A stretch of DNA of 64,000 bases from Hyphomicrobiales bacterium (GCA_016125495.1 WGLQ01000002.1:26969-90968), one strand, 5' to 3'; shown: positions 41,877 through 52,294, numbered from the stretch's first letter. The notes: a model not told the origin generated them from the sequence alone. Numbers and translations are program-made.

Positions 41877-43367
41877 TCAGGCGCGCGGCGCGCCGACGTG
41901 GCGACCGGCCTCGGCCGGACGGGGGAGGGCGGCGTGAGCCTCGGCGACGGCACGCAGCCTTGCTTCGACTTCGGGTGCGGCCGGTGTCACCCGGCGCGCC
42001 TTCAGATCGACGTGCAGCAGCATGTGCTCGCCGGTGGCCAGCAGGGTGTCGTTGCGCCCGTTGTAGAGCCTGTGGAAGAGGTGCATGCGTTTGTCATCCG
42101 CACCGAGGACCTGGGTGGTGACGTAGATCGGCTCGAGGGCCTGCACCTCGTCCTTGTGGATGATATGGGTTTCGCCCGTGAAATAGCTCCGTCCAGCGGC
42201 GATGTAGCTGTCGTCTGCGCCGACGAAGTGCATCATGGCGTCGGTGGCGTTCGTGAAGGTTTCGAGATAGCGGCTCTCGTTCATGTGGTTGTTGTAGTCG
42301 GTCCACTCGGGTCGCACCTGGTCCTCGTAGAGGCGCAAAGGGCGGGAGAGGTCGTGACTGCCGGCGTCGGGAGCCGAGGCATGCGTGCGAGCGAGGAGGC
42401 TCGCCTCGTACTCGGAGAGCGTCCTGCCGGCGCCCCAACGGTTCTGGCGGAGCGACTGCATGATGGCAATGAGGTTGTCGTCACGGATGCGCTCGAGCTC
42501 GCGGATGGAAAGACCGGCGGCCTGTTCCTCGCACTGGACGGCGATCTTCTCGACCAGTTCGTCCGTCATCTCGGGCGTGTCCATGAGCTTGGTCCACGGC
42601 CATTTGAGCGCGGGGCCGAACTGCGCCATGAAATGGCGCATGCCCGCCTCGCCACCGGCGATGTTGAAGACCTGGAAGGTGCCCATCTGGGCCCAGCGGA
42701 GGCCGCAACCATAGCGGATAGCGTCGTCGATCTCGGCGGCCGTCGCGATGTCGTCGTGAACGAGCCAGAGGGCCTCGCGCCAAAGGGCCTCCATGAGGCG
42801 GTCGGCGATGAAGGCGTCGATTTCCTTGCGCACGACCAGGGGATGCATTCCGAGCGAGGCATAGAACGATTTCGCGGTCGCGGTCACGGCGAGGGCCGTT
42901 GCGGGGCTCGGCACGATCTCGACCAAAGGAAGGAGATAAACCGGATTAAAGGGGTGGCCGACGAGGAGCCGTTCCGGATTGCGCATGCCTTCCTGGAGAT
43001 CGCTCGGCTTGTAGCCGGAGGTCGAGGAGGCGATCACGACGTCCTGCGGAACGAGCGCCTCGATGTCGGCAAAAAGGCGCCTTTTCAATTCGATACGCTC
43101 GGGCGCGGCCTCCTGGATGAACTGCGCGCCAGCGAGAGCCTCGGCAAGGTCGGTCGTGACCCGAACACTGCCTTGCCGACCGAGCGGGGCGAGGGTCAGC
43201 TTGGACTGGGCGCGGCGGGCGAGGCGCATCACCTCGTCGACCTTGCGTGGCGCCTCGGGATCAGGGTCGACGACGACGACGTCGATGCCGTTGGCCGAGA
43301 AGCGGGCGGCCCAGGCTGCCCCGATCACGCCACCGCCGATGCAGGCGGCCTTTTCCACTGCGCTCAT
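41877..43367 (-). CDS. lcdH: L-carnitine 3-dehydrogenase fused to a C-terminal hotdog-fold thioesterase
   Basis: AACIGGGVIGAAWAARFSANGIDVVVVDP (3-hydroxyacyl-CoA dehydrogenase NAD fold), HPFNPVYLLPLVEIV and IRYGCGLRWAQMGTF. C-terminal ~150 aa is 4HBT-like (PEWTDYNNHMNESRYLETF...GETHIIHKDEV). ATG 43367 after GAGGAAAGAA. Confidence 0.8.
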   Translation of the reverse strand: MSAVEKAACIGGGVIGAAWAARFSANGIDVVVVDPDPEAPRKVDEVMRLARRAQSKLTLAPLGRQGSVRVTTDLAEALAGAQFIQEAAPERIELKRRLFADIEALVPQDVVIASSTSGYKPSDLQEGMRNPERLLVGHPFNPVYLLPLVEIVPSPATALAVTATAKSFYASLGMHPLVVRKEIDAFIADRLMEALWREALWLVHDDIATAAEIDDAIRYGCGLRWAQMGTFQVFNIAGGEAGMRHFMAQFGPALKWPWTKLMDTPEMTDELVEKIAVQCEEQAAGLSIRELERIRDDNLIAIMQSLRQNRWGAGRTLSEYEASLLARTHASAPDAGSHDLSRPLRLYEDQVRPEWTDYNNHMNESRYLETFTNATDAMMHFVGADDSYIAAGRSYFTGETHIIHKDEVQALEPIYVTTQVLGADDKRMHLFHRLYNGRNDTLLATGEHMLLHVDLKARRVTPAAPEVEARLRAVAEAHAALPRPAEAGRHVGAPRA

Positions 43368-43411
43368 TTCTTTCCTCGTTCGACTGACGTCGGGTTGGCG
43401 GCGCGCGGCGC

Positions 43412-44308
43412 TCAGCCGCGCTTCGTGAGAGCGAGGCGCTTGCGAACATCCGCCGGGCCGATGACGGTCGCGCCCATCGCCTCGAGGATGGTCACGGCGC
43501 GCTCGACGAGTTGCCCGTTCGTTGCGAGCACGCCGCGCGAGAGGTAAATATTGTCCTCGAGACCGACCCTGACGTTGCCGCCGGCCAGCGCCGAATGGGC
43601 AACCCAGGGCATCTGCATGCGGCCGATGGCAAAGCTGGACCAGATCGAGCCGGGTGGCAGGTTGTTGACCATGCCCATGAACGTGTTGGTGTCGGCCGGC
43701 GCGCCATAGGGAATGCCCATGCAGAGCTGGATGAGGGCGGGAGAGTCGATCAATCCCTCCCGCATCAGGTCCTTGACCTGCCAGAGGTGGCCGGTGTCGA
43801 AGACCTCGCATTCGGGCTTGACGCCGAGTTCCTTGATCCTCTTGGCCATGGCGCGGAGCATGTCGACGGAGTTGACCATGATGTAGTCGCCACCGGCGAG
43901 GAAGTTCATGGTGCCGCAGTCGAGGGTGCAGATCTCGGGGAGCAATTCGGCGACGTGGGCGAGACGCTCCTCGGCGCCGGCCATGTCGGTGCCCTTTTCC
44001 TTGAGCGGCAGGGGGCGCTCGGGCGAGCCGAGCACGAGGTCGCCGCCCATGCCGGCGGTGAGGTTGATGACGGCATCGACGCCCGAGGAGCGGATGCGGT
44101 CGACAGCTTCCTTGTAGAGGGCAACGGAGCGGGAACCGGCACCCGTTGCGGGATCGCGGACGTGGAGGTGGACGACGGCGGCGCCCGCCTTGGCGGCCTC
44201 GATAGCCGAGGCGGCGATTTCCGCGGGGGTGACCGGAACCTTGTCGCTCTTGTCGGTGGTGGCGCCGGCGCCAGTCACGGCGCAGGTGACGAAGACCTCC
44301 CAGTTCAT
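43412..44308 (-). CDS. Beta-keto acid cleavage enzyme (BKACE/DUF849; 3-dehydrocarnitine cleavage enzyme type)
   Basis: [49 protein letters not shown], the BKACE signature. ATG 44308 after GAGGAG. The longer track ORF extends to 44380. Confidence 0.85.
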
Positions 44309-44379
44309 CGTGGATCGTCTCCTCTTGCTCAGCATGGTGCGAGCCGAGATGCTATTGCGGGTGGCATCGGCATGCTTCA

Positions 44380-44409
44380 CAATTTGCGTGGAAACTCATG
44401 CAATTTGCG
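44380..44409. promoter_or_regulatory. Direct repeat CAATTTGCG x2 (21-bp register) in the divergent BKACE/regulator promoter region; candidate operator
   Basis: Read directly: CAATTTGCG at 44380-44388 and 44401-44409, within the 166-bp intergenic region between start codons 44308 (-) and 44475 (+). Confidence 0.4.
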
Positions 44410-44474
44410 CAACGCCGCATATCGCCGGACATGCCACGCACGCGGCCGCGCCGGCAACGGTTGGAGGAGGCACG

Positions 44475-45494
44475 ATGCTCTTTCAGGCTCGTGGTGGCAC
44501 CGCGCCGCTCAGACTCGACTTCCTCTTGCTGGAGGAGTTCACGCTTCTCGGGCTGGCGGCGGCCATGGAGCCGCTTCGGGCGGCGAATCGGGCGGCCGGT
44601 CAGGCGCTCTATCGTTGGCGGGTGCTTTCGGCGGACGGGCGACCCGTGGCTTCCTCCAGCGGCATGCAGATGATCGTGGAGGGGGAGTTCAACGCCGAGG
44701 CCGAGCGGGATGCGGTGATCTGTGTGGCCTCGTTCGGGGTGGCGCGTCAGGCGGCGGCTCTGGCGCGGCGATTGCGGACGCTGGCGCGCCGAGGGGTGAC
44801 GCTCGGCGGTATCGATTCGGGTGCCTGGGTGCTGGCGGCGGCGGGGTTGCTCGACGGCTATCGAGCGACCACGCACTGGGAGGATCTGGCCTCGTTCGCG
44901 GCGTCGCACCCGGAGGTCGAGGTCGTGCCGGATCGCTACGTCGTCGACCGGGGGCGGATCACGACGGGTGGCGCGACACCGGCCCTCGAGATGGCGCTCG
45001 ACCTCATCGCCGCCAACCATGGTCTCAACCTCTCGCTGATGGTCGCCAACGCGTTCATCTACGACCACCGCATGCGGGCCGGCGAGCCGCAACCGCTGGT
45101 GCCGGTCGGGCGGCTGGCGCTCGATGCGCCGGAGGTGGCGGAGGCGATCCGGATCATGGAACGGACACTCGCCGCGCCGATCGGCGTCGAGGCGATCGCG
45201 CGCCGGGTGGGGGTGGCGCGGCGCACGCTCGAGGTTGCGTTCCGCCGTGCGCTGGCGACATCGATCAACGCCTACTATCTCGATCTGCGGCTCGGGCATG
45301 CCCGCCGCCTGTTGCAGCACTCGCGGTTGAGCGTCACTGAAATCGCCGACCGCTCAGGCTTTTCCTCCAGCGCGGCGTTCGCACGTGCCTTCCGACGGCA
45401 GTTCGGCGAAACGCCTGGGGCCGCGCGGCGAACGGTCAGCGGCGCGGCGGATCGGCCGGGAGAGGCGATTGCAGGTCGCCGCCTTCGGGACTGA
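44475..45494 (+). CDS. GlxA-family (DJ-1/PfpI domain plus AraC HTH) transcriptional regulator, CdhR/GbdR-like
   Basis: ATG 44475 after GGAGGAGG. LDFLLLEEFTLLGLAAAMEPLRAANR (GATase1-like domain), with C-terminal AraC HTH SVTEIADRSGFSSSAAFARAFRRQFGETPG. Divergent from the carnitine genes. Confidence 0.8.
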   Translation: MLFQARGGTAPLRLDFLLLEEFTLLGLAAAMEPLRAANRAAGQALYRWRVLSADGRPVASSSGMQMIVEGEFNAEAERDAVICVASFGVARQAAALARRLRTLARRGVTLGGIDSGAWVLAAAGLLDGYRATTHWEDLASFAASHPEVEVVPDRYVVDRGRITTGGATPALEMALDLIAANHGLNLSLMVANAFIYDHRMRAGEPQPLVPVGRLALDAPEVAEAIRIMERTLAAPIGVEAIARRVGVARRTLEVAFRRALATSINAYYLDLRLGHARRLLQHSRLSVTEIADRSGFSSSAAFARAFRRQFGETPGAARRTVSGAADRPGEAIAGRRLRD

Positions 45495-46374
45495 CGGCAA
45501 GTGGCTGGCGGCGCTTGCGAACCAGAACCATGGCGAAGGCGATGACGGCTACGCCGAGCCATGTGTGGTCCTCGGGCCGCTCGGACCAGACGAGGTAGCC
45601 GATCGCCGCGGAAAAGAGGAAAATCGAGTAGTCGAACGGCGCTAGTACGCCGATCGACGCAAAACGGCATGCCTGGATGATGAGAATGGTGGCGGCGCCG
45701 CCGAGGAGACCAACACCCGTAAAGGCGAGCCACTCGTCCTGCCAGCCGATATCCCAAGCGGGCAAGGCAACAGGCAGTGCGAGGAGGGACATGCCGAGGG
45801 GCGTTGCGAGCAGCATGGTGTCCGACTCGCCGCGTGCCGCAAGCTCGCGGGTCATCAGCATCGCCGCGCAATAAAAGACCGTTGCGCCAAGTGCGAGCAG
45901 GATGCCTAGAGCCGAGGTATCGTGCCAGTCGAGGCTCCATGGCGAGACGATGAGCAGACCTCCGACGAGGCCGAGGGCGACGAGCCCAGCCTGCCTCAGG
46001 CCTATTTTCTCCATACCGAGGAGCCCTGCACTGATGGTCATGAGCACGGGAGCCAGCAGCGTGATGGCGGCCGCCTTGGCCAGGATGAGATACTTGAGGG
46101 AGATGAAAAATAAGGCGGTGGCGATCGCCGCCGTCGCGATGCGCGCGAGTTGCATGGCCGGACTGGAGGTCGAGAGGACGAAACGCCGCCGCGTCGCGAG
46201 GATGAAGGCGAGGACGGGCAAAAGCGCGAAGGCGCCGCGAAAGAACACGATCTGCGCGAAATCGAAGGTCGCAACGAGATGCTTGGCAAGCGCATCCATC
46301 GCAGCGAGGAGGGCGATGGCGATCGTGTAGAGGCCAGCGCCCAGGAGCGGATCGGAGGACAATTGTCCCTTCAC
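45436..46374 (-). CDS. EamA/DMT-superfamily transporter (putative exporter)
   Basis: About 10 hydrophobic helices in two EamA-like halves (YTIAIALLAAMDALAKHLV...; LLALGATVFYCAAMLMTREL...). GTG start 46374 overlaps the tfuA stop (GTGA at 46371-46374), indicating translational coupling. Confidence 0.8.
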   Translation of the reverse strand: MKGQLSSDPLLGAGLYTIAIALLAAMDALAKHLVATFDFAQIVFFRGAFALLPVLAFILATRRRFVLSTSSPAMQLARIATAAIATALFFISLKYLILAKAAAITLLAPVLMTISAGLLGMEKIGLRQAGLVALGLVGGLLIVSPWSLDWHDTSALGILLALGATVFYCAAMLMTRELAARGESDTMLLATPLGMSLLALPVALPAWDIGWQDEWLAFTGVGLLGGAATILIIQACRFASIGVLAPFDYSIFLFSAAIGYLVWSERPEDHTWLGVAVIAFAMVLVRKRRQPLAVSPEGGDLQSPLPADPPRR

Positions 46375-47138
46375 GGTGTGATGCCACGCTCGGCGAGGAG
46401 ACCAACGAACTGGGCCGTGAGGGGGACGGGCGGGCGCGCGGCCCGGGCGATGCCATCGCCGGGATCGTTTCCCCCGTCCGTCGTCGCGCCGGCGGCGCAG
46501 GCCGAAAGGCGGTCGAGCAGGGCGATGCCATCCTTGCGCTTCAGGTCGAAATCGCCGCCCGACCACCAGGCGGCGAAGCGCTGGCCTAGGTCGTTGCCCT
46601 CGTTGCCGGCACCTTCGAGGGCCGCGACGACGGCCTCGCAGGTGCGTTCCTTGTAGTCGAGGGACTTTGCCGTCGCGACGATCACGCTTGCCTCTTCAGA
46701 GGTTAGCCGGCCGGCCGTGAGCGCCAGTTCGCAGGCGTGGCGAATGTTCACCATCGCCTCGGACAGCGGCATGTAGCCGGCCTCGGCGGGGCCATGGATC
46801 AGCGCCACCTCGTCGTCGTCCTCATGAACCAGGTCGCGGTAGTCGGCGAAGATGCGGCCGACACCTTCCATGCCGAGGGCGTGGAGCTCGGCGGCACGCA
46901 GAGCGCCCATGCTGGATGCGCCGTAGACCCTCGCGCCACGCTCCATGGCCCAGACGATCTCCTTGTGCCAGACCGCACGGGTGGTCTCGAAGAAGCCGTC
47001 GATGATCGCGATGTGGCGTGCGCCGTCTGCAACCGCGGTGGCAACATCCCCGGCCGCGGCGGGGGGGCGAAACTCCAATGACGGCCAGCGCGAGAGGTCG
47101 CACGCCGAGAGGGTGGGGCCGGCAAAAACGACGATCAT
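46371..47138 (-). CDS. tfuA: TfuA-like protein
   Basis: MIVVFAGPTLSACDL...HIAIIDGFFETTRAVWHKEIVWAMERGARVYGASSMGALRAAELHALGMEGVGRIF is the TfuA signature. ATG 47138 lies 8 nt after GAGAGGAG. Confidence 0.9.
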   Translation of the reverse strand: MIVVFAGPTLSACDLSRWPSLEFRPPAAAGDVATAVADGARHIAIIDGFFETTRAVWHKEIVWAMERGARVYGASSMGALRAAELHALGMEGVGRIFADYRDLVHEDDDEVALIHGPAEAGYMPLSEAMVNIRHACELALTAGRLTSEEASVIVATAKSLDYKERTCEAVVAALEGAGNEGNDLGQRFAAWWSGGDFDLKRKDGIALLDRLSACAAGATTDGGNDPGDGIARAARPPVPLTAQFVGLLAERGITP

Positions 47139-47214
47139 CCATTCAGCTCCTCTCGATACGGCGGCCTGCGGCAGAAGACTGGTCAGGCACCCGCGGTCGG
47201 TCCCCCTTCGGAAC

Positions 47215-47236
47215 GGTTGCGATCCTGCACGCAACC
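47215..47236 (-). other. 7-bp GC-rich stem-loop in the ycaO-tfuA intergenic gap
   Basis: GGTTGCG (47215-47221) pairs with CGCAACC (47230-47236), with an 8-nt loop. There is no U-tract, so this is probably an mRNA processing or stability element rather than a terminator. Confidence 0.3.
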
Positions 47237-47294
47237 TCGAACGTGGTCAAATGCCTGGTGGTCCCGCCGTCGATCGCGAACGGTGTGCGCCGCT

Positions 47295-48596
47295 TCATCC
47301 GATGCCGAGTGGAGCGAGCACGCGTGGCCCCGGTTGGTAACCGACATCGTCATGGGGCGGTTCGAGGCCCGGAACAACGACCTTGGCGACGGAAATATCG
47401 GGATGCTCGGGCCAGCCGAGGTCCACCGCGACAGCTTCCTCGATCCCGACGGCCGCAAGGTTCGCGCAGACGCGGCGCAATTCGGCGTCGTAGGTCGGGG
47501 TGCACGGATCCGCGGGCCATGAGGGGGCGACCGGGGGGCGCGTGTCGATCTCGAGGCTCTCGCGAATGCGATCGGCGAAATCGCCGTCGATCACATAGTT
47601 GCGGGCGAGGAGATCGTCACGGGCGCCGGCGATCAGGGTGAGCCGGTCCTGGGCGGCCTCCGTTATGGCGCGTGACATGGCGATGGACGGACTGGCATGA
47701 CAACCTGAACCGATGGTGGCGCGCGCCTTCGAGCGCGACGCGGCGAGTCCCTCCCAGATCATGCAATAGGCGCATGGCACGCCGACGTCGCTGGTGATGT
47801 CCCAGAGATGGACTTCCATGCCGAGCGAATGGATGCGCTCGATCAGGGCACGGGGGCCATCGAGACAGGGATGGTCGAGGTCGAGGCGGGGAAAGGCGCG
47901 CACACGACCGAAGTGGTAATGAAACAGTGTGATGGCATCGCGCTCGATGATCTCATAGAGCGCATGCGTGATCGCCTCGAGGACGTTGTTGCCGGATGCC
48001 AGACCGTTCGAGCCCTTGAAAAAAATCCCCTCGGGTCCGCGATCCACCCCGATCGTGAAGTCGTTGGTAACGGTTTCGAGCGGCAAGAGGCGCGGCGTTT
48101 GCCCGAGGATGTCGAAGCCCTCGACCCAGGCGAGCGGAGCCTCGTCGAGCGGCGGGGCATCGTCGCGCATGGGCAGGCGCGTGAGGTCGACGGGGCGGCC
48201 GAGGCGGGCGACGGTGGCCACTGTCGTGCGGTGAACGGGCAGGCGCAGGTTCTCGGCATGGTGGGCCTCGATCGACTCCATGATCCCCGAGACCTTGGCG
48301 GCTTCGAGCGACACCCCCTTGCCGGTGGAAACGCTGACGGAGCGCGACAGCGGGCGCACCACATTGACGACGGGCAGCCCGATCCTGTCGAGCCCTGTGA
48401 TGTTGGCTACCCGGGTGATCCCGTAACGCGGCAGGAGCGGCATCACGCGATCCAGTGTTTCGCCGGGCGGGCGCGAGCGGAACGTGCCATCGTAAGCGTG
48501 GCGGGCCCCGGGCTCGAGGGCGGCCGGGTGGATCAAGTGTGTTGTGGTCCCGGCGGGGGCGGTCGCGAGGCGGGGTCCGGGAGCGGCGTCATCCAT
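47295..48596 (-). CDS. ycaO: YcaO-like family protein (TfuA-associated class)
   Basis: GKGVSLEAAKVSGIMESIEAHHAE and ALYEIIERDAITLF (the ATP/Mg-binding Glu motifs of the YcaO superfamily). ATG 48596 (GGAG 12 nt upstream), with alternatives GTG 48599 and TTG 48632 (track start). Confidence 0.9.
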   Translation of the reverse strand: MDDAAPGPRLATAPAGTTTHLIHPAALEPGARHAYDGTFRSRPPGETLDRVMPLLPRYGITRVANITGLDRIGLPVVNVVRPLSRSVSVSTGKGVSLEAAKVSGIMESIEAHHAENLRLPVHRTTVATVARLGRPVDLTRLPMRDDAPPLDEAPLAWVEGFDILGQTPRLLPLETVTNDFTIGVDRGPEGIFFKGSNGLASGNNVLEAITHALYEIIERDAITLFHYHFGRVRAFPRLDLDHPCLDGPRALIERIHSLGMEVHLWDITSDVGVPCAYCMIWEGLAASRSKARATIGSGCHASPSIAMSRAITEAAQDRLTLIAGARDDLLARNYVIDGDFADRIRESLEIDTRPPVAPSWPADPCTPTYDAELRRVCANLAAVGIEEAVAVDLGWPEHPDISVAKVVVPGLEPPHDDVGYQPGPRVLAPLGIG

Positions 48597-48923
48597 CACG
48601 AGGCGGGGCTCCAGTAGCGGCTGTGAAGGCAATGGTCATCGTTCGCGTCGGCGACATGGAGCGCCGAAACGCGAGGGCATGAGCTCTTTGCGCCCTGTGA
48701 CACCACGGGACTGCCTCCACTTCAGCCGACCGGGTGGGTAACGATGGTCGGATCGACAGCGACCGCCCCGATCCGGTCCTGTCGGGCGGTCCGTCGGGCG
48801 GGGGCTCCGACGATCTCCCTATACTCAAGAACCGCCGGGAACCCTCAGCCCCGAACAGTCCTGCGATCGATCGTCACGGGCTTTCAAGCGCGCGCTGGAG
48901 GCCGCTTCGATCGGTCATTGTTA

Positions 48924-49015
48924 TCACCCGGGACTAATCCGAATCGCCCTTTGATATTCAAGTCGAATTCAAACGTTCCATTCATCCGGGATTTAATCCA
49001 TCCATTCATCCGGGA
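48924..49015. repeat. Three copies of a TCAYCCGGGA motif in the low-GC spacer between the small ORF and ycaO
   Basis: TCACCCGGGA at 48924-48933, TCATCCGGGA at 48982-48991 and TCATCCGGGA at 49006-49015. The last two extend to CCATTCATCCGGGA, 24 bp apart. Copies 1 and 2 share a flanking ...AATCC. Confidence 0.6.
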
Positions 49016-49317
49016 CCAAAACTAGCGGAATCGTTAAACCCCGCGACCTCGACCCTCTCGCATTATCCCTGCGCGATTGATCCTCCTTCAAGCGGGCATG
49101 CCGAACCGATCGGCTGCATCCGCCGACGAATTTTGCGACATGGGTTCGGGTGTCGCGTTCAATCGGCAGGGTGCGGGGACAATCCGCCGCACATGCGAGC
49201 GAGCGCTTGGCATCGAAAATTTCAATCTGTTCTAAACAATTGATTCTTCGTCTATATTTTCCTTCTCACCTGAGCAGCGCAAGCGTTTCGACCGTGAGGA
49301 GAGATCGATTGTCGACC

Positions 49318-49360
49318 GTCGCGGACCGGAACGAATAATCGCTCCACGGCGATCCGCGAC
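49318..49360 (-). terminator. Imperfect stem-loop about 10 nt downstream of the small-ORF stop (possible attenuator or partial terminator)
   Basis: On the minus strand, GTCGCGGA (49360-49353) pairs with TCCGCGAC (49325-49318). The 27-nt loop has an internal GGA/TCC pairing, and there is no U-run immediately after. Confidence 0.3.
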
Positions 49361-49370
49361 GGTGCATAAG

Positions 49371-49520
49371 TCAGCGAATGCGTCCGCCGACCTGGGCGGG
49401 CGTAACCGCGGTCGCGGAAATACGACCGCCAACTTGAGCCGGAGTCACGGCCTTGGGAGCGATGCGTCCACCAACGTTCGAGGGCGTCTCGATCGCGGTC
49501 GTCGCCGTGGATTTTGTCAT
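49371..49520 (-). CDS. Unannotated 49-aa peptide with three VGGRI cassettes; candidate RiPP precursor (putative YcaO/TfuA substrate)
   Basis: Manual translation of the minus strand gives ATG (49520-49518) ... TGA (49373-49371): MTKSTATTAIETPSNVGGRIAPKAVTPAQVGGRISATAVTPAQVGGRIR. Strong SD lies directly upstream. The two AVTPAQVGGRI units differ at 9 of 11 codons, all synonymously. Same strand as, and upstream of, ycaO-tfuA-DMT. Confidence 0.75.
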   Translation of the reverse strand: MTKSTATTAIETPSNVGGRIAPKAVTPAQVGGRISATAVTPAQVGGRIR

Positions 49521-49531
49521 TTTCCTCTCCT
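49521..49531 (-). promoter_or_regulatory. Shine-Dalgarno sequence of the small ORF
   Basis: The reverse complement of 49521-49531 is AGGAGAGGAAA, immediately preceding the ATG. Confidence 0.7.
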
Positions 49532-49592
49532 GTTGACAGGTTTCTTAACGCGTCAAGTCAATCATTCAATCGGATGCGTGCAAACGGTATTA

Positions 49593-51335
49593 ATGATGGA
49601 TTCATCTTCTCCGGTTCGTTGGCAATCGGTTCTCTATGCCGATGCCGTGGCATATTCAGAATCAATGCGGTTGTGCAGATCGGAGACGATCGAGGCAATC
49701 GGGGCCGCGCGTCGGTCGTTCTGCGAAGCTGCCGCGCAGTATCACGGCCGCATCGTGGAGATGACGGGCGACAGCGTGCTCGCCGTCTTCAACACCAGCC
49801 AGGCGGCCATGCGGGCGGCGCTTTCGGTCCAGCACGCGCTGAGCCGCGGTCACGGCGAGGGCGATGGTCGGGCTCTGAGATTCCGAATCGCCATATGCGA
49901 AGGGGAAACCACGGAGGGTGAGGGCGGGCTCTTCGGAGAAGTGATCATCAAGGCGGCCCGCCTCCAGTCCCTGACGGCTCCCGGTTGCATCGGAGTCGAC
50001 GAGGATGTTTTTCAGGCCCTCGCCCCCAGTCTGCGCGTCTTCGAGCCGAGGCGGATCGGGGGGGTCGCAAAGGCGGGGTCGATGCCTATTCGCGGCATCG
50101 AGATCGACCCGGCGGCGATATCGACCGGTTGCCCGCCACCGGTTCCGCGTGGCGCCGGCAGTCGCCTCAGGGCGGTCACCGCGGTCGAGGTGCTGGTGGC
50201 CGGAACGACGGACGACGAGGTCCGCGATGTGCTGGCCGGCCGGGTGGTCGATCATCTCGTCGGCGCGGCGTTCGACGTGACGGCGCGACAGGTGCAGCGT
50301 GGCCTCAGGAATCTCCTCTCGCGAATGGCCAGGGATGGGGCAGGCTGCGGCGACTACCTGGTGCTGATCGAAGGCGAGCCCGGTTTCGGGCGGTCGGTCA
50401 AGCTCGGCATCTACAGCCGCCAGCAACGGAGATTCCTTCTCTCGCGACACTTTGGCTGCCTGGAGTTCGGACACGGTCGAGGACACAATGTCGCGGGGGC
50501 GCCGGGTGGCGCGAGCGTCGATACGGTCGCCTCCTATGTCGTCGATACGATCGAGGTCGGTGAGATCGAAGCGAGCGACAACCAGGTCCTCTCCCCCCGT
50601 GGCAGTTTCCATCACTACCTCAAGGGAAAGCGTTTGCTTTCCACATACAGCCGGATCGGCATACTGGAAGGCATAAGGGCACTCAGGGAGGCCCTCCATT
50701 TCGATCCCGACTATGCGAGGGCACATGCCCTCCTGGCGCGTGGCTATGCCATAGCGTGGCGCTTCGACTGGGCTTGCGGACCGGCTCAGCCGCTCGAGAC
50801 GGCGATCGAGCACGCGAGCCGGGCGGTGCAGATCGACCCGATCGATCCCGTCTGCGAGCATCAGCTCGGGTTCTGTCACTTCTGGTCGGGTGAGCGCGAT
50901 CGCGCAGTCTATGCGCTCGAGCGGGCGCGGCGCATGCGGCCAGGGTGCGCGGGTGTGGCCGGCGACCTCGGCATGGTATTCAGCTATCTCGATCGCTGCG
51001 ACGAGGCGATCGATCTCTTGCAGGCATCGCTCGCCCTCGACGAGACGAATCCGGATTATCGTCTCTGGTCGCTCGGGGATGCCCACTTCGAGAGGGGCGA
51101 CGACGAGGCGGTTCTGCGCGTGCTCAGCCGGATGCGGGATCCGACTCAATCCTATCGCCTGCTCGCCGCCGCGACCGCGCGCCTCGGCGGTGACCCGCGC
51201 CGGCACGTGGACCGCCTCTTGCGGTACCAGCCCGATTTTTCCGTCGAGCGCTGGATCGCCGTGCAGCCGACCATGACCGAGGAGGGGAAAACGGTCTATG
51301 CCGAAGCGCTGCGTGCGGCGGGGCTGCCGGGCTGA
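49593..51335 (+). CDS. Class III adenylate/guanylate cyclase domain protein with C-terminal TPR-like repeats
   Basis: Cyclase catalytic motifs VLYADAVAYSESM, EMTGDSVLAVF and FRIAICEGE...GEVIIKAARLQSLTAPGCIGV. C-terminal helical repeats (ARAHALLARGYAIAW, PDYRLWSLGDAHFERGDDEAV). Start taken at ATG 49593; the track start 49362 is rejected (see the rejected list). Confidence 0.8.
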   Translation: MMDSSSPVRWQSVLYADAVAYSESMRLCRSETIEAIGAARRSFCEAAAQYHGRIVEMTGDSVLAVFNTSQAAMRAALSVQHALSRGHGEGDGRALRFRIAICEGETTEGEGGLFGEVIIKAARLQSLTAPGCIGVDEDVFQALAPSLRVFEPRRIGGVAKAGSMPIRGIEIDPAAISTGCPPPVPRGAGSRLRAVTAVEVLVAGTTDDEVRDVLAGRVVDHLVGAAFDVTARQVQRGLRNLLSRMARDGAGCGDYLVLIEGEPGFGRSVKLGIYSRQQRRFLLSRHFGCLEFGHGRGHNVAGAPGGASVDTVASYVVDTIEVGEIEASDNQVLSPRGSFHHYLKGKRLLSTYSRIGILEGIRALREALHFDPDYARAHALLARGYAIAWRFDWACGPAQPLETAIEHASRAVQIDPIDPVCEHQLGFCHFWSGERDRAVYALERARRMRPGCAGVAGDLGMVFSYLDRCDEAIDLLQASLALDETNPDYRLWSLGDAHFERGDDEAVLRVLSRMRDPTQSYRLLAAATARLGGDPRRHVDRLLRYQPDFSVERWIAVQPTMTEEGKTVYAEALRAAGLPG

Positions 51336-51562: not shown

Positions 51563-52294
51563 ATGAAAGGGGGAAGCTGCGCGCAGCGGCAGTTGCGGAG
51601 GCTCGTCGACAAGGTGGAGCTCTTCCGGGGGATCGGTGAGCACACGGTGGCAGAAATCAGCCGTCGCGCGCGAGCTGTTTCGTTCGCCGGGGGCGAGGAG
51701 ATCGTGCGGCTGGGCGAGCCTGCCACGTCACTTTATCTTCTGGCGCTTGGCCGGGCGGAGGTCTCGGTGCTCGGTCTCGATGGACGCAAGGTCGTGGTCA
51801 ATGTGATCGGCGCGCCCGATCTCTTCGGAGAGATCGCGATCGCCGATGGCGGGCCGCGAACGGCGACGGTGACCGCACTCGAGGCCATCGATTGCTGGAT
51901 GATCGGGCGCGACGACCTGTTGGCCGCACTGGCGTCCGATGCGTGCCTGTCTCGACGGCTCCTCGAATTGCTGGCGAGACGCTTGCGGGCGATAAACGAA
52001 CAGTATTTCGAAGCGACGACCCTGTCCGTACCGGTTCGGGCGGCGCGCCAGCTGTTGCGGCTGGAGGGCCGGGCCGGGGTGTCCGGCCAGCCGGTGCGAA
52101 TTTCGCAGGAGGCGCTCGCGCATCAGGTGGCGGCCTCGCGCGAGCACATGAACCGGGTGCTGACCGGCTGGCGGCGCGGCGGTATCGTGGAGGTGGTACG
52201 CGGGGCGATCATCATCCGTGACGGCTCGCGGCTCAGCAAGCTCGCCGGGTTCGATCACGATCGGCCGGCGGGGACGGCGCGCGCCCTGGGTTGA
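51563..52294 (+). CDS. Crp/Fnr-family transcriptional regulator
   Basis: cNMP-binding domain LFGEIAIADGGPRTATVTALE and C-terminal HTH ISQEALAHQVAASREHMNRVLTGWRRGGIV. Start at ATG 51563. Confidence 0.85.
   Translation: MKGGSCAQRQLRRLVDKVELFRGIGEHTVAEISRRARAVSFAGGEEIVRLGEPATSLYLLALGRAEVSVLGLDGRKVVVNVIGAPDLFGEIAIADGGPRTATVTALEAIDCWMIGRDDLLAALASDACLSRRLLELLARRLRAINEQYFEATTLSVPVRAARQLLRLEGRAGVSGQPVRISQEALAHQVAASREHMNRVLTGWRRGGIVEVVRGAIIIRDGSRLSKLAGFDHDRPAGTARALG

Follow-up and report, generated by a model that had tools for sequence, protein, structure and literature searches.

Within a window of 64,000 nucleotides from a Hyphomicrobiales bacterium (GCA_016125495.1 WGLQ01000002.1:26969-90968; the whole stretch of DNA analysed, with positions counted from its first letter), a compact gene cluster was identified around a YcaO enzyme, a TfuA protein and a carrier of the EamA/drug-metabolite transporter (DMT) superfamily. 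It comprises six genes: a 49-residue repeat-peptide precursor, ycaO, tfuA and the DMT gene on the minus strand, and a class-III-cyclase-like/TPR gene and a crp gene running divergently on the plus strand. The locus probably encodes a leaderless, multi-core, thiovarsolin-like pathway in which a peptide made on the ribosome and modified after translation (RiPP) or other small peptide would be thioamidated and passed to a dedicated small-cargo exporter. A preliminary description of this DNA had recognised ycaO, tfuA and EamA/DMT genes between 45436 and 48632 as a minimal thioamidation-plus-export module in a proteobacterium. All three were found there, co-oriented on the minus strand, by open reading frame (ORF) and Pfam analysis, and the source is a metagenome-assembled genome (MAG) of the Hyphomicrobiales (Rhizobiales), a soil/water alphaproteobacterium. 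An independently assembled and annotated copy of this DNA (Logan, locus L085) agrees on the three genes and their starts, and the 49-residue ORF was called there as well.

The same description had postulated a repeat-cassette precursor, and such a gene lies upstream of ycaO. It encodes MTKSTATTAIETPSNVGGRIAPKAVTPAQVGGRISATAVTPAQVGGRIR, and the ribosome-binding site (RBS) AGGAGAGG precedes its start by five bases. A short, non-conserved N-terminus is followed by three repeats at a period of 14 residues, with the core (T-P-A/S-Q/N)-V-G-G-R-I. Between the second and third TPAQVGGRI units, seven of nine codons differ, every one synonymously, and over all repeat pairs 16 synonymous codon differences stand against 4 non-synonymous ones. 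Since the differences between repeats are mostly synonymous, the amino-acid sequence is under selection in the precursor's frame, and the 49-residue repeat ORF is a genuine gene under purifying selection. This synonymous divergence is also the reason why Tandem Repeats Finder, working on DNA, missed the repeats. Neither Pfam nor NCBIfam holds a model for the precursor peptides, and a word-indexed search with the window peptide retrieved only itself. In an exhaustive phmmer search of 1.84 billion representative proteins, only the peptide itself and one further protein, P0144, were relevant; ten other matches were rejected as unrelated repeat proteins, e.g. FG-nucleoporin-like sequences. The precursor ORF is apparently unannotated in the NCBI record of the MAG, because only two accession numbers are free between YcaO and a D-amino-acid transaminase, for the cyclase/TPR and Crp proteins; the Logan assembly calls it (P0121).

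Comparison with related loci makes it likely that this repeat peptide is the substrate of the YcaO-TfuA pair. Among 5.8 billion proteins, the close relatives of the window YcaO comprise one identical sequence, then sequences of 61, 58, 58 and 52% identity, followed by those at 47% or less. These define five lineages (window/L085, L001, L002 with L146, L003/L086, and L004), all five of which share the order repeat peptide, hairpin, YcaO, TfuA, DMT. The preliminary description had asked whether the synteny of the triad and a small ORF is conserved, and the upstream repeat peptide was present in five of five lineages; the triad was not seen to be widespread without an adjacent peptide. The L001 precursor, MSASNLNTPAQVGGRIRPMTKTPAQTGGRIRPVTETPSQVGGRIRPAASTPSQLGGRIR, contains four repeats of TPAQVGGRIRP, and that of L002, ending in ...NAPTQVCGKISPKAVTPTQVCGKISPKAVTPTQVCGKISPKAVTPTQVCGKVSATA, contains four repeats of TPTQVCGKISPKAV with a Cys in the core (QVCGKIS). 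At contig ends, the L003 precursor is seen as ...VGGKIRPQAVI* and the L004 precursor as ...ASVGARVAAPASVGARVAAPASVGARVAQPTR*, the latter with three or more repeats of APASVGARVA. A common core, [V/L/T]-[G/C]-[G/A]-[R/K]-[I/V], runs through the clade, and the N-termini of 7-26 residues are not conserved. The L001 repeats show 28 synonymous versus 9 non-synonymous codon differences, and those of L002 and L004 hardly differ in DNA, a sign that they expanded recently. P0144 (66 aa) is an L002-type, Cys-containing peptide with three repeats, and L002 (5472-5714) has four; copy number therefore varies between near-identical clusters.

In a neighbour-joining tree of 129 YcaOs rooted on MJ1094 and built without bootstrap, the five lineages formed one clade, and the other TfuA-linked YcaOs of proteobacteria were its sister group. 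The clade is rare, with two precursor families detectable among the 1.84 billion representative proteins. The DMT gene follows tfuA directly in all five lineages, overlapping its stop codon in four (L003, L004, L146 and the window) and separated from it by 56 nt in L001. A hidden Markov model (HMM) of the clade DMTs detected no adjacent DMT in approximately 135 distant YcaO-TfuA loci, and gave one weak, non-adjacent match in L019; the DMT is thus specific to this clade. Beyond it, the genes vary by locus, the window having carnitine catabolism genes, L146 a mechanosensitive channel and the remaining loci others.

The ycaO ORF ends at 47295 and starts either at TTG 48632, giving the longest form of 445 residues, or at ATG 48596 (433 residues), the choice of the independent gene caller. 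PF02624 spans residues 104-424 of the 445-residue protein at full profile length (E=2.6e-70), and both superfamily motifs reported earlier, SGIMESIEAHH and YEIIERDA, occur in the translation. The ATP/Mg2+ residues are invariant in the alignment (S103/E107/E110, E207/E215/E218-R-D and R309/E313/Q316/R318, in 433-residue numbering), and the protein is stand-alone, without a fused E1 or RRE domain. In the PDB ranking, MJ1094 of Methanocaldococcus, a TfuA-dependent YcaO for McrA thioamidation (1e-26), was followed by LynD (2e-14) and TruD (1e-12), with MusD also behind MJ1094. In the NCBIfam ranking, TIGR03266, the model for McrA-glycine thioamidation, came first (183 bits), followed by the generic YcaO domain and SagD (110 bits), and the S12/uL16-type housekeeping model YcaO_for_S12 scored 17 bits. 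The suggested placement of YcaO, made here by HMM and PDB ranking with the VarY and TvaH sequences left out, thus found thioamide-forming enzymes nearest, rather than cyclodehydratases or housekeeping YcaOs. For tfuA, the likely ATG lies eight bases past AGAGGAG and 156 nt downstream of ycaO. The product (MBI1383455, among the NCBI proteins MBI1383451-65 of the window's contig) had been called a textbook TfuA, which agrees with its match to PF07812 (E=8.7e-46), with the stretch IAIIDGFF...GASSMGALRAAEL in its translation and with its end-to-end alignment to a solved TfuA (6XP8, 3e-29).

YcaO enzymes activate a backbone amide with ATP and, together with TfuA and a sulfide source, convert it to a thioamide. 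The pairing of the two families in this locus makes a thioamide the likely modification. The uL16-modifying YcaO acts without TfuA (PMC13063428, a 2026 paper on uL16 thioamidation), and the same source, citing Liu et al. 2021, has TfuA-type systems using a ThiS thiocarboxylate.

The third gene of the triad had been described as a 10-TM EamA/DMT transporter. Its product contains two EamA stretches (PF00892, E=3.2e-18), and its hydropathy profile shows nine peaks of at least 1.5 together with a shorter tenth stretch, WLGVAVIAFAMVLV, in a 5+5 transmembrane pattern. Both features place it in the EamA/DMT superfamily; no characterised member is close to the cluster protein, and no solved homologue was detectable by sequence. 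The reported GTGA overlap can be read in the DNA (...ACA CCG TGA AGG GAC...), where GTG 46374-46372 overlaps the tfuA TGA at 46373-46371. As a start codon, this GTG is only one of two plausible choices, the NCBI annotation placing the start four codons downstream (308 aa). Outside the clusters, the nearest homologues are 33-35% identical and not linked to YcaO, and a DMT-based search for further clusters returned P0133-P0135, at the same identity, in unrelated contexts. Export of the excised units through the DMT is a reading of slightly less than even probability.

A stable RNA hairpin lies 10 nt past the precursor stop codon. Such structures are well supported in four of the five loci (z of -3.6, -6.7, -2.6 and -3.1), 10-16 nt past the stop, and weak in L001 (z -1.6); their sequences are not conserved between the five loci. 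Hairpins of this kind are common in RiPP operons, where the precursor transcript must exceed the enzyme transcript, and this one is likely a partial terminator or messenger RNA (mRNA) stabiliser setting the precursor-to-enzyme ratio. The spacer that follows is of lower GC content and unusually long (774 bp between the precursor gene and ycaO, against 166-480 bp in the relatives). A hidden gene within it was considered and rejected, since the only ORFs there are two short ones that lack both homologues and an RBS. It also contains two exact copies of the 15-bp sequence TCCCGGATGAATGGA, 24 bp apart and found nowhere else in the window, which are possibly a regulator site. No Rfam match was obtained in 48400-49800, and a scan for sigma-70 and terminator consensus sequences gave counts close to chance level and was set aside.

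Among characterised systems, the thiovarsolin pathway of Streptomyces varsoviensis comes closest; in it, varA, varY (YcaO) and varT (TfuA) suffice for the formation of N-acetyl-A-Pψ[CS]-R tripeptides (Santos-Aberturas et al. 2019, PMC6511847). VarA consists of MRKDSDLRLDDLAHVNPEQLQGFLEERSTAAVH followed by five 16-residue repeats of GATDAHFSAPRAQTVR with the core APR (PMC6511847, RiPPER supplement), and release of the thiovarsolins by host peptidases was proposed by the authors (PMC6511847). Both systems use tandem modules of 14-16 residues, each with a very short core ending in Arg, numbering three in the window and three to four or more in its relatives. Both have YcaO and TfuA as their sole essential tailoring machinery, encode no dedicated protease and include a secondary-transporter gene. 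The product predicted here would likewise be a tiny thioamidated peptide released in several copies per precursor, and the expectation of small cargo in many copies is supported by the thiovarsolins as an experimental precedent. As far as sequence analysis reaches, the interpretation in the preliminary description is supported, and each of its suggested checks that can be made computationally favoured it. Several differences are also evident: the repeat GATDAHFSAPRAQTVR with core APR in VarA is replaced by AVTPAQVGGRISAT with cores GGR, CGK or GAR, and the VarA leader of approximately 30 residues contrasts with the 7-26 non-conserved N-terminal residues found here. Furthermore, the transporter is of the MFS type there and a translationally coupled DMT here, and the hosts are Actinobacteria there and Alphaproteobacteria, with a linked cyclase-like/TPR and Crp pair, here. 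Counterparts of varO (heme-oxygenase-like), varL (ATP-grasp) and varS (amidinotransferase) were absent within approximately 7-10 kb on either side.

For both enzymes, the nearest homologues of solved structure are the McrA YcaO and TfuA of methanogens (MJ1094, PDB 6PE3/6PEU; 6XP8), which resemble the window pair in combining a stand-alone YcaO with TfuA, in leader-free recognition and in a Gly-rich target. The methanogen enzymes, however, modify one site of a large enzyme subunit, whereas a dedicated repeat peptide is present here; the window's organism lacks MCR, and its proteins score well under the equivalog cut-offs.

On this basis, the following pathway is proposed. The 49-residue peptide would be translated as three self-contained 14-residue modules without a leader domain, and YcaO would use ATP to activate one backbone amide in each V-G-G-R-I core for conversion to a thioamide, with TfuA delivering sulfide equivalents taken from a housekeeping thiocarboxylate of the ThiS type. 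The analogy with thiovarsolin (A-Pψ[CS]-R) and the conservation of the core point to the Gly carbonyl before Arg/Lys as the most probable site of modification, with one thioamide per module. As no protease is encoded in the cluster, trimming of the unmodified linkers is assigned to housekeeping peptidases, which would leave several short, thioamide-protected peptides of 3-5 residues, ranging from G-Gψ[CS]-R up to V-G-Gψ[CS]-R-I. These would be exported by the translationally coupled DMT carrier, while the hairpin would keep precursor mRNA in excess over enzyme mRNA and the cyclase-like/TPR and Crp pair would regulate the locus.

Several observations weigh against this pathway. YcaO scores 182.9 bits against the TIGR03266 equivalog cut-off of 365, and TfuA scores 182 bits against the NF033432 cut-off of 235.2; both enzymes are therefore relatives, not orthologues, of the McrA enzymes. 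No ThiS-like ORF ending in Gly-Gly was found in the window, and the window precursor has no detectable sequence similarity to VarA, sharing no motif with it beyond the small-residue-Arg core. The MFS transporter of the thiovarsolin cluster was dispensable (PMC6511847), and an adjoining transporter is therefore no proof of product export. In addition, the clade has only five known lineages, most on short metagenomic contigs, and the 774-bp gap makes co-transcription of the precursor and ycaO less certain.

More distant YcaO-TfuA loci (YcaO identity 39-47%) provide a wider context, as many carry a longer repeat protein 2.5-3.5 kb downstream of tfuA. The hosts of this sister family include Ruegeria, Leisingera, Labrenzia, Afifella, Mesorhizobium, Paracoccus, gammaproteobacterial MAGs and others. 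Its precursors bear the N-terminal motif W-x-Y-D-K-x-D-x-x-I-R-x-D-x-x-x-G-x-x-E-Q-x-L-L and end in 5-9 back-to-back pentapeptides, mainly variants of V-[S/G]-G-[A/G]-[R/K], or hexapeptides; the pentapeptides include VSGAK, VSGAR, VGGGR, VSGGR, VAGGR, VGGGK, GASVR, GMNAR and GINAR, and the hexapeptides YSGGKA and SRSDLA. Two further conserved proteins, of approximately 220 and 450 residues, lie between tfuA and the sister precursor. Among the fetched loci, homologues of the ~220-residue protein were found in 68, of the ~450-residue protein in 73 and of the sister precursor in 49. None of the three has a Pfam family, and the ~220-residue protein gave a faint NCBIfam match to TIGR04500, 'putative peptide maturation system protein'. 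The loci with a sister precursor (typically at locus coordinates ~11.8-12.9 kb) are L008, L014, L016, L018-L022, L033, L035, L043, L047, L050, L053, L056, L058, L063, L066, L074, L075, L081, L090-L096, L102-L120 and L136.

The two groups share tandem V-[S/G]-G-[A/G]-[R/K] cores as well as cyclase/TPR and Crp genes that recur nearby, and the comparison of their sequences points to a shared small-small-basic core specificity. They differ in that the sister precursors have a long conserved N-terminal domain and contiguous pentapeptides, stand downstream of the enzymes and are accompanied by two extra proteins and no DMT, whereas in the window clade the core sits in self-contained modules of 10-14 residues without a leader domain. 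No homologue of the sister leader domain, of the 450-residue protein or of the TfuA-adjacent 220-residue protein was found in the window. The word 'minimal' in the preliminary description is therefore apt: the window clade is a stripped-down relative, with a DMT added. Genes for long repeat proteins were also observed directly upstream of YcaO in a few other loci, for example approximately 20 copies of DADAGRWA(I/V)(T/S)P in L055 (6772-7812), eight copies of AGRMAIEAxDxx in L045 (7326-7844), five copies of DHASARQVIEPG in L042 (7426-7800) and ASARH repeats in L070 (7462-7749); each of these units contains a small-residue-Arg pair. Actinobacteria supply all characterised YcaO-TfuA natural products, while proteobacteria account for approximately 60-70% of the predicted clusters, which are unassigned (PMC8120280). 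In the searched text of this global TfuA-cluster survey, repeat precursors and EamA each receive no mention. The sister family is apparently uncharacterised, and an incomplete search of the literature found no description of the clade or of the pentapeptide-repeat family, so that 'undescribed' is provisional.

Alternative readings of the window cluster differ mainly in the fate and the target of the modification. The product might be the whole or most of the peptide, unexcised and bearing one thioamide per repeat, for instance as a linear Cu(I)/metal-binding or antibiotic peptide, with the DMT serving immunity or efflux or carrying another small solute. Thioamitides do carry several thioamides on one peptide, and the cluster encodes no protease. 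The linkers, T-P-A/S-Q ahead of the core and I-R/S-P behind it, also show conservation inside loci and to some extent across them, more than mere spacers would require. Their conservation is, however, equally explained if they form the recognition element of each leaderless module. Moreover, repeat number varies from three to four or more even between near-identical strains, which fits the dosage of a unit better than a defined structure, excision is the thiovarsolin precedent, and DMT carriers (EamA, RhtA, YddG) take amino-acid- or metabolite-sized substrates rather than peptides of 4-6 kDa. An intact product is accordingly considered unlikely.

It is much less probable still that YcaO acts on the peptide by another chemistry of its family, for example by forming azolines or amidines or by cleaving it at the expense of ATP. 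The Cys in the core of one lineage (QVCGKIS) could in principle cyclise, and YcaO falls under the cut-off of the thioamidation family; yet Gly occupies this position in the other lineages, and the core has no conserved Cys, Ser or Thr. The partners of azoline-type systems, i.e. those producing thiazole/oxazole-modified microcins, linear azole-containing peptides and cyanobactins, are also lacking. The earlier statement that no E1/Ocin-ThiF partner, azoline dehydrogenase, peptidase or ABC exporter lies nearby was borne out within approximately 7-10 kb on either side, and no E1-like/RRE partner accompanies YcaO. Furthermore, a TfuA that aligns from end to end with the solved protein adjoins ycaO in every examined locus whose contig passes it, and thioamide enzymes outrank cyclodehydratases in both PDB and NCBIfam. 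Finally, modification of a housekeeping protein, such as McrA or uL16, with the repeat ORF and the DMT as bystanders, is the least credible option: protein-modifying YcaOs do exist in Pseudomonadota (PMC13063428) and the 774-bp gap loosens the operon argument, but a same-core repeat peptide under purifying selection stays upstream of YcaO in five of five lineages while all outer neighbours change, repeat peptides accompany YcaO-TfuA in 49 or more loci of the sister family, and the uL16-type model scores only 17 bits, uL16-type enzymes moreover lacking TfuA.

The features of the thioamidation cluster are collected in Table 1.

Table 1. Coordinates of the genes and sequence elements of the cluster in the 64,000-nucleotide window.
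Feature	Coordinates	Strand	Evidence
Precursor gene, 49 aa	49371..49520	minus	ORF with RBS; Logan P0121; homologous repeat peptides in L001-L004
RNA hairpin	49315..49363	minus	Minimum free energy -35 kcal/mol, z=-3.6
Two 15-bp direct repeats	48977..49015	minus	2 matches versus 0.19 expected by chance
ycaO, stand-alone, 433 aa	47295..48596	minus	PF02624, TIGR03266, MJ1094 match
tfuA, 255 aa	46371..47138	minus	PF07812, NF033432, 6XP8 alignment
EamA/DMT transporter, 312 aa	45436..46374	minus	Two EamA stretches, hydropathy
Class-III-cyclase-like/TPR gene	49593..51335	plus, divergent	TPR families; homologues in L001, L002
Crp/FNR-family regulator	51563..52294	plus	Pfam: cNMP-binding domain and HTH_Crp_2

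Within approximately 7-10 kb, the neighbours are a GlxA/AraC regulator, BKACE, a carnitine dehydrogenase, the cyclase-like/TPR and Crp genes, an aminotransferase and 5-oxoprolinase subunits. Downstream of the cluster (41877-45494) lie a carnitine 3-dehydrogenase-thioesterase fusion, a BKACE enzyme and a GlxA-AraC regulator resembling GbdR/CdhR. The regulator gene converges on the DMT gene, and their 3' ends overlap by 59 nt. These carnitine-catabolism-type genes are not kept beside the cluster in the relatives. Around the precursor genes, CGTTA(A/G) elements, some of them palindromic, were observed in L001 (1900-1973), L003 (40-75), L002 (5400-5471) and the window (49521-49570). They read GCGTTAGCAA...TTGCTAACGC upstream of the L001 precursor, CGTTAG...CTAACG in the L003 hairpin, and CGTTAA in L002 and the window, and are possibly a shared operator, or due to chance.

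The divergent cyclase-like/TPR gene is separated from the precursor gene by a 72-bp intergenic region, taking MMDSSS at 49593 as its probable start; the Logan call begins at 49665, inside the cyclase domain, and the upstream start is likelier. The gene is present in each of the three loci whose sequence continues beyond the precursor on its upstream side (window, L001 and L002), and crp lies beyond it in both loci extending that far (window and L002). Homologues of both also recur beside distant YcaO-TfuA pairs. The cyclase-like homologues of L002 and L043 match Guanylate_cyc, and the window protein matches TPR families. In the alignment, both Asp motifs for metal binding (YADAVAYS and TGD) are retained in the window cyclase domain; unlike in the L001, L002, L043 and L014 homologues, Ile replaces the catalytic Asn of 'VNxAAR', and the window cyclase may therefore not make a cyclic nucleotide monophosphate (cNMP).

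Short peptides are ligands of TPR domains, for example in the RRNPP quorum-sensing receptors. A speculative and rather improbable extension would make the thioamidated oligopeptides secreted signals instead of antibiotics, exported by the DMT and sensed by the TPR protein, with the cyclase setting cNMP levels and Crp reading these to control the precursor operon. The recurrence of cyclase/TPR and Crp genes beside distant repeat-peptide clusters is compatible with signalling and is no test of it, and the missing catalytic Asn argues that the window cyclase would be a sensor or scaffold at best. If true, this would amount to a circuit for cell-cell signalling in Alphaproteobacteria that is based on peptides and coupled to cNMP, and in which the thioamide makes the signal protease-resistant.

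Altogether, the clade represents a very small and well-delimited proteobacterial system, with a 49-residue leaderless substrate, two enzymes and one carrier. Leaderless thioamidation, the choice of the amide, and the release and export of mini-peptides are directly testable in it. Through its small-small-basic core, the clade is linked to an unrecognised and far larger group of precursors with pentapeptide repeats, and a single reconstitution could therefore give dozens of orphan clusters a substrate type.

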